The notes under the pieces: generated by a model
The model's database searches: none
What the model was told of the DNA's origin: nothing
What the model saw: the letters and a program-made list of their open reading frames with translations, nothing else
Translations under genes and position numbers: made by a program
From: Escherichia coli
GTDB taxonomy: Bacteria; Pseudomonadota; Gammaproteobacteria; Enterobacterales; Enterobacteriaceae
Assembly (NCBI RefSeq): GCF_013315695.1
Contig: NZ_CP054353.1
Reading direction: 5' to 3' (one strand)
Length of the DNA stretch: 64,000 nt
Shown here: positions 26,475-26,919 of the stretch, piece by piece
Layout: each line of letters opens with the position of its first letter
Position numbering within the stretch: the stretch's first letter is position 1

Positions 26475-26831
26475 AGTCGCTGCCATTTATTCAGATAAAG
26501 AGTGCGTGGATGGTAGCAGAATTTCGCTTTGCTTACCGCCTGTTGTTAAGTGATTTGATCGATGGTTGTTAATGATGTCAACGATGGCGCAAAAAATGCC
26601 CGCTTTTGGTGCGCGCTGCGTCAGAATGGCGCAGTAATTTCCAGTAAATTTCGTCAATGATCACAATTCCAGAATTATATTTTACTTCTGCATAACATTG
26701 CGTTTTTTATTCTTTTTATTCACCCACATCGCAAACGTATTCACTTTATATGCACTTTAAATGCATATGGTTTGGTTATAACTCCTTGATTTCCAGTTAG
26801 CCTCCGCCGTTTATGCACTTTTATCACTGGC

Positions 26832-26847
26832 TGGCACGAACCCTGCA
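26832..26847 (+). promoter_or_regulatory. sigma54-type promoter element (TGGCAC-N5-CTGCA) upstream of astC
   Basis: GG and GC dinucleotides spaced exactly as in the -24/-12 consensus, about 70 nt upstream of the astC ATG; the ast operon is known to be nitrogen-regulated. Confidence 0.6.
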
Positions 26848-26919
26848 ATCTACATTTACAGCGAAAACATTACTTATTATTAACATATAAATAACGAATT
26901 TTTTACTGTAGAGGTCGCT

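Follow-up and report, generated by a model that had tools for sequence, protein, structure and literature searches.

The xthA–astC spacer of Escherichia coli, very probably a multi-input control region of the arginine succinyltransferase operon

Two genes of Escherichia coli, xthA and astC, are read away from each other across a short spacer; which regulatory inputs does this spacer carry, and how might they be brought together at the astC promoter? In the window (the whole stretch of 64,000 nucleotides that was analysed) the divergent spacer occupies positions 26475–26919 (445 bp). Bounding it are a minus-strand open reading frame encoding exodeoxyribonuclease III (xthA) and a plus-strand open reading frame encoding succinylornithine transaminase (astC), the ATG of the latter being at 26920. 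The translations, the genome annotation and the annotation of K-12 bear out the naming of both flanks in an earlier note on this DNA, and the right edge that it gave to the region (26487–26919) is also correct; the left edge is not, the true start being 26475, and 26487 reflects the xthA start of the longest open reading frame. A mechanical list of open reading frames places the xthA ATG at 26486 (MAATMKF...), as opposed to the annotated ATG at 26474 (MKFVSF...), which gives a protein of 268 amino acids as in K-12.

A 601-bp query over the spacer finds at least 90% identity, with xthA and astC annotated, in 5,424 of 5,426 complete E. coli genomes. The K-12 MG1655 spacer (1831983–1832427, with xthA from 1832428 and astC up to 1831982) is also 445 bp long and differs from the one analysed here by three SNPs (26528, 26864 and 26901), the assigned sites being free of them. 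Conservation was assessed over 80 orthologous astC loci from about 25 enterobacterial genera, with some of the spacing counts made on 81 sequences. In some genera the conserved xthA motif is 912 or 1906 bp away from astC, or is absent from the upstream DNA covered (L047 and L067; also L044, for which the upstream stretch covered is 228 bp only, L050, L061, L064, L065, L070, L072 and L074), so the adjacency of xthA and astC is not universal, though the astC control region is retained. The presence, statistics, conservation and rigid spacing of the elements described below were computed in this analysis; sigma-54 and NtrC binding, the dependence on ArgR and RpoS, and the ArcA footprint are taken from the literature.

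Searched against Rfam with gathering thresholds, the full window shows no structured RNA or sRNA between 26000 and 27500; the matches elsewhere in it are a Phe leader (59409–59533, plus strand, 74 bits), the sRNA STnc540 (63229–63373, plus strand, 41 bits) and the ES036/CssrF sRNA (35495–35537, minus strand, 39 bits, barely over threshold). An open reading frame for 56 amino acids on the minus strand (26487–26657) was rejected as coding, owing to indels of 11–47 bp among genera in the stretch that it crosses. Also rejected was a sigma-70 promoter by consensus scan, the sole match being inside xthA and at chance level.

Positioned at the astC end of the spacer is the element from which all distances are counted here.

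26832–26847, plus strand: sigma-54 promoter TGGCACGAACCCTGCA, with the −24 GG at 26833–26834 and the −12 GC at 26845–26846, 88 nt upstream of the astC ATG.
26858, plus strand: predicted sigma-54 transcription start (+1), with the C of the GC element set at −12.

The GG and GC doublets of TGGCACGAACCCTGCA are exactly 10 bp apart, and the element departs from TGGCAC-N5-TTGCW once (CTGCA for TTGCA). The pattern TGGCAC-N6-TGCW has a single match in the 64-kb window, where 0.43 would be expected by chance, and at least one match arises in 38 of 100 shuffles. By itself the motif is not significant at the scale of the window; it is position, strand and conservation that make it real. In all 80 orthologous loci TGGCAY-N6-TGCA is found at −87 to −92 from the astC ATG, and the middle six bases vary freely. 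This combination of invariant −24 and −12 elements with a freely varying middle is a signature of selection on the two elements.

Published work places a sigma-54 promoter at the same position. The astC promoter was given as tggcTGGCACGAACCCTGCAATctac at −88 to −71 from the astC start (Zhao 2010), and a sigma-54 ChIP-seq peak, flagged as previously confirmed, falls on CTGGCACGAACCCTGCA, 62 nt from the gene start (Bonocora 2015); the motif centre of that peak, K-12 coordinate 1830087, corresponds to 26839 in the window. The Salmonella homologue of the site is TGGCACGAATGCTGCAAT (Samuels 2013), a peak in the xthA–astC spacer was obtained by RpoN gSELEX, and astC responds to rpoN in array studies (Zhao 2010, Samuels 2013). 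The sigma-54 consensus that the earlier note had read at 26832–26847 is therefore exact in position, coinciding with the published promoter and ChIP-seq site and recurring in every ortholog. A start near 26858 is consistent with the distance of 62 nt to the gene start (Bonocora 2015), and it also fits a footprinting fragment, −166 to +62, that ends at the ATG (Park 2013). The compatibility of mapped starts with this promoter, on which the earlier note had staked its proposal, holds: published work implies a start at 26858, 62 nt ahead of the ATG, and this is where a −24/−12 element in this position is expected to direct it.

Well upstream of the promoter are two dyads of the NtrC type, found by scoring every 17-mer in the 64 kb against TGCACCA-N3-TGGTGCA (maximum 14).

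26597–26613: NtrC-type dyad 1, TGCCCGCTTTTGGTGCG, 10/14, centre −253.
26617–26633: NtrC-type dyad 2, TGCGTCAGAATGGCGCA, 11/14, centre −233, 20 bp from dyad 1.

Scores of at least 10/14 occur at 22 positions in the 64 kb, or about 0.15 expected per 445 bp, and two of the 22 lie adjacent in the spacer. Among the 80 orthologs, a dyad of at least 9/14 is present at −252 to −254 in 71 and at −232 to −234 in 56, the latter including symmetric variants such as CGCCCCGTTTTGGGGCG; outside these two positions such dyads are found almost nowhere. The ortholog consensus of dyad 1 is tGCaCc.tt.tg..gCg, and the GC...GC cores of both dyads are near-invariant. The GC-rich half-sites at 26600–26625 that had been put forward as NtrC candidates turn out to be the inner halves of these conserved dyads (the right half of dyad 1 and the left half of dyad 2). 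A third dyad at 26575–26591 was rejected, as it scores 8/14 and a dyad near this offset is found in few genera only.

NtrC binding at astC is documented by ChIP-seq (Brown 2014) and gSELEX (Shimada 2021), and NtrC-dependent expression of astC has been published. The placement of the NtrC sites at 26597–26633 is a computational assignment, and these dyads are best described as putative binding sites. The 80-bp NtrC ChIP-seq interval (1830021–1830101; Brown 2014) corresponds to 26825–26905 in the window, covering the promoter and leader some 230 bp from the dyads; the offset may reflect limited resolution or cross-linking through a loop. In a full-text literature search for the site strings the sigma-54 motif alone was found, and the NtrC and ArgR site strings were not.

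Between the enhancer-like dyads and the promoter is a cluster of sequences resembling ARG boxes. These were scored with a symmetric weight matrix built from 16 boxes of eight classical K-12 promoters, ten arginine-regulon promoters having been examined; the boxes were recovered as the best consensus-scoring pair of 18-mers 20–21 bp apart, a procedure that regained the textbook boxes in the eight classical promoters. In leave-one-out scoring the true boxes mostly reach 12–21 bits, and 10 positions in the window score at least 10 bits.

26739–26756: best ARG-box-like site, ATTCACTTTATATGCACT, 10.2 bits, centre −110.5.
26728–26745: overlapping weaker ARG-like box that closes with the invariant ATTCACT, centre −121.5, 2.3 bits in this strain.
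26669–26686 and 26687–26704: two weak ARG-like boxes (5.5 and 5.4 bits), 18 bp apart, not 21.
26748–26768: palindrome ATATGCA-N7-TGCATAT, with the conserved form TATGCA-N7-TGAATA, perfect in 8 of 80 orthologs.
26810–26822, plus strand: conserved TTTATGCAYTTTT, just upstream of the −24 element and near-invariant in orthologs.

The best of these sites matches 13 of the 16 specified positions of wnTGAATwwwwATTCAnw; its score is reached by only 8 of 63,983 window positions, and its median over the 80 orthologs is about 10 bits. The weaker box at −121.5 has an ortholog median of 7.2 bits and reaches at least 4 bits in 78% of them, and another weak box, at 26750, scores 4.3 bits, which is also the ortholog median at the corresponding −100.5. 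Within the pair of weak boxes farther upstream, TGMATAA (26689–26695) is near-invariant among orthologs. A tandem ARG operator is not present in the spacer, in that no two boxes 20–22 bp apart total at least 9 bits; the positions where a partner of the 26739–26756 box would begin score −10.9 bits (26718) and −1.4 bits (26760).

The palindrome had been proposed in the earlier note, at about 26747–26767, as a candidate for ArgR binding. Its sequence was read correctly and its position was one base off, the true span being 26748–26768. As an ArgR candidate it stands in part: it overlaps the strong ARG-like box, and its width exceeds that of one box by 1 bp. It is the only perfect inverted repeat in the intergenic region with 7-nt arms and a spacer of at most 12, and since such a repeat arises in 34% of dinucleotide shuffles of the spacer, the palindrome alone is not significant. 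As a single ARG box it was rejected on its width and its scores of 2.8–4.3 bits, and as an NtrC site on its spacing (TGCA-N7-TGCA, against the N9 of NtrC dyads) and a score below 8/14. Classical operators place exactly 7 nt between the right half of their first box and the left half of the second. The ATKCA-N7-TGMAT spacing of the palindrome equals this spacing of adjacent boxes, so that the palindrome has the geometry of an ARG inter-box junction, centred at 26758. Because TGCA is self-complementary, two ArgR registers about 11 bp apart would be possible (26728/26749 or 26739/26760). The ArgR coordinates are a computational assignment, and the exact register given here is to be taken as a candidate one. 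Secondary sources describe astCp as a weak promoter, naturally bound by ArgR, and state that ArgR with arginine raises the sigma-54-driven expression of the ast operon as an accessory activator that is not essential.

An alternative is that a dimeric regulator distinct from ArgR binds the palindrome and the TATKCA/TGMATA half-sites, or that ArgR does so in part, the matrix score then reflecting a shared AT-rich composition. Such a regulator would suit a palindrome too wide and too low in score for an ARG box, and a spacer with no canonical tandem operator. It would also suit the 10-mer TATGCACTTT, which occurs twice, at 26749–26758 and 26812–26821, 63 bp apart (3 × 21), with strong conservation of both copies. 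The proximal TTTATGCAYTTTT was rejected as an ARG box at −2.9 bits, yet the copy of the 10-mer there is conserved almost totally, which hints at a rule other than that of the ARG box. We nevertheless consider this alternative improbable, as the box at −110.5 keeps, over about 25 genera, a score that so few positions of the window attain, the literature has ArgR binding and superinducing astC, and the half-sites are spaced exactly as in neighbouring ARG boxes, a match checked against the classical operators.

Two further elements of the stretch between dyads and promoter are conserved.

26779–26791, minus strand: IHF consensus AATCAAGGAGTTA (= WATCAANNNNTTR), perfect core, centre −73, a candidate site.
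26647–26695: conserved block AAATTTCG-N6-GATCACAATTCCAGAATTATATTT-N6-TGMATAA, at −211 to −163, as conserved as the core promoter.

Counting both strands, the IHF consensus has three matches in the 64 kb, including this one. An IHF-type site is present at −73 or −72 in 76 of 80 orthologs, its specified positions being conserved and its N4 positions variable; the 5′ flank of the core, CTAACTGGA, is not obviously A/T-rich by eye. Included in the upstream block is a right half-site resembling that of CRP (TCACA, 26661–26665). No report of IHF at astC was found in the accessible literature, nor was either the consensus or the block at −211 to −163 found described there.

From the sigma-54 element to the GATCACA block (within 26647–26695) there are 172–174 bp in 78 of 81 sequences, whereas from the same block to the xthA start the distance ranges from 127 to 194 bp. 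Between the IHF-like site and the −24 element there are 53 bp in 78 of the 81 sequences, with two more at 52 bp; the NtrC dyads hold −253 and −233 within about 1 bp, and the block at −199 to −176 holds its place relative to the sigma-54 element within about 2 bp. Fixed distances on the promoter side and variable ones on the xthA side indicate that indels are tolerated near xthA and excluded between enhancer and promoter. Rigidity of this kind is as expected if the helical phasing of a protein-shaped loop matters. A loop kept rigid over about 25 genera and shaped by ArgR, by IHF at −73 and by another protein, possibly CRP, on 26647–26695 is an idea that we advance tentatively and hold to be rather doubtful as a whole; the recurring TATGCAYTTT element (−109 and −46) may belong to this loop scaffold.

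At the far end of the spacer is a candidate promoter for the other gene.

26509–26521, minus strand: xthA promoter candidate GATGGTAGCAGAA, conserved in orthologs, 35–47 nt upstream of the xthA ATG (26474).

Read on the minus strand as TGCTACCAT, it may be an extended −10-like element for xthA with C at −13. Expression of xthA is RpoS-dependent, which such an element would fit. With a spacer common to two divergent genes and this xthA-proximal block conserved, it could be argued that the conserved blocks serve mainly the regulation of xthA and not that of astC. We regard this as very unlikely, since from 26597 onwards every block is held in place to within about 2 bp relative to the astC promoter, the distances to xthA vary by tens of base pairs, and in a few genera xthA is not adjacent at all.

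Around and downstream of the predicted start are elements that relate to two further published inputs.

26850–26856, plus strand: CTACATT, a candidate −10 of the sigma-S type that overlaps the region of the sigma-54 start.
26869–26907, minus strand: four ArcA direct repeats with 11-bp spacing, +11 to +49, in the astC leader.

The sequence CTACATT(T/C)ACAG is almost invariant in orthologs, exceeding what sigma-54 requires, and astC has been published as RpoS-dependent and directly transcribed by RpoS; CTACATT may be the sigma-S hexamer. A 44-bp footprint protected by ArcA-P, with four consecutive repeats, has been reported at the astC promoter (Park 2013). We map these repeats provisionally to 26869–26907, where the plus strand reads ATTACT (26869), TTAACA (26880), ATAACG (26891) and TTTACT (26902), the repeats resembling TGTTAA on the minus strand; the mapping is consistent with the footprint. 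TTAACAT in this region is invariant in orthologs. The SNP at 26901 (T here, A in K-12) falls between ArcA repeats.

That TGGCAC-N6-TGCA is a mere chance match and all transcription of astC comes from sigma-S or sigma-70 promoters, a view open to anyone impressed by the chance expectation per window, by the overlapping sigma-S-type −10 and by the RpoS dependence of astC, has practically no prospect of being true, and ChIP-seq together with conservation has already refuted it: the motif keeps its place in every ortholog while its spacer varies freely, a sigma-54 peak marked as confirmed is centred on it, astC responds to rpoN in arrays, and NtrC-type dyads are kept at a fixed distance upstream.

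Taken as a whole, the spacer is very probably a multi-input control region of the arginine succinyltransferase operon astCADBE. Sigma-54 RNA polymerase would sit in a closed complex on the −24/−12 element at 26832–26847. When nitrogen is limiting, phosphorylated NtrC would occupy the dyads at 26597–26633, about 253 and 233 bp upstream, oligomerise, contact the polymerase by DNA looping and open the promoter with ATP, transcription starting near 26858. The stretch of about 190 bp between enhancer and promoter would carry architectural or co-activator sites: the ARG-box-like cluster at about −121 to −90 (26728–26777, palindrome included), through which arginine-bound ArgR is reported to superinduce the operon, and the IHF site at −73, possibly helping to shape the loop with ArgR, in a geometry that is itself a prediction. 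The sigma-S-type −10 overlapping the sigma-54 start region would give expression in stationary phase, the four ArcA repeats (+11 to +49) in the 5′ leader would permit anaerobic repression by ArcA-P, and xthA would be driven from a separate promoter at the opposite end of the spacer. No feature of the sequence conflicts with what has been published, and the control region is one already known.

Few sigma-54 promoters of E. coli have been confirmed by experiment; that of astC is one of them, with NtrC, ArgR, RpoS and ArcA inputs all published. What is added here are exact window coordinates for each element, the description of the palindrome as a junction of ARG half-sites and not a box, and an 80-locus phylogenetic footprint that shows the loop geometry to be very rigid and brings out two elements with strong conservation, the IHF consensus and the block at −211 to −163. 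The IHF consensus, the ArcA repeats, the sigma-S-type −10 and the block at 26647–26695 were all absent from the earlier note, as were the proximal TTTATGCAYTTTT and the xthA promoter candidate. For DNA looping at sigma-54 promoters this provides a modest, testable lead.

The nearest known system is the same locus. The E. coli astCADBE operon was reportedly described by Kiupakis and Reitzer in 2002 as having a sigma-54- and NtrC-dependent promoter, astCp2, superinduced by ArgR, together with sigma-S expression; relative to it the spacer analysed here shows no difference in kind, and the promoter is identical to the published one. The control region of the Salmonella Typhimurium ast (cstC) operon, said to have been treated by Lu and Abdelal in 1999, is orthologous, and S. 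enterica subsp. arizonae (L048) has the same layout in the alignment. Salmonella differs from E. coli in the spacer between the −24 and −12 elements and in the first NtrC dyad, only the −233 dyad reaching at least 9/14 in L048.

The E. coli promoter glnHp2 is likewise weak and sigma-54-dependent, and it requires an architectural protein between its NtrC sites and the promoter. There the helper is IHF, whereas the documented helper at astC is ArgR and the conserved IHF consensus at −73 marks a candidate site; the astC enhancer (−253/−233) is also much farther out than that of glnHp2. Classical ArgR operators (argF, argI, argECBH and carAB among others) consist of two 18-bp ARG boxes 3 bp apart (2 bp in argR). 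They share with astC the half-sites TGAAT/ATTCA, the variants TGCAT/ATGCA and the inter-half spacing. Unlike them, astC has one good box, no strong tandem pair and a site far upstream (about −110), and ArgR acts there positively, whereas at the classical operators it overlaps and blocks the promoter.
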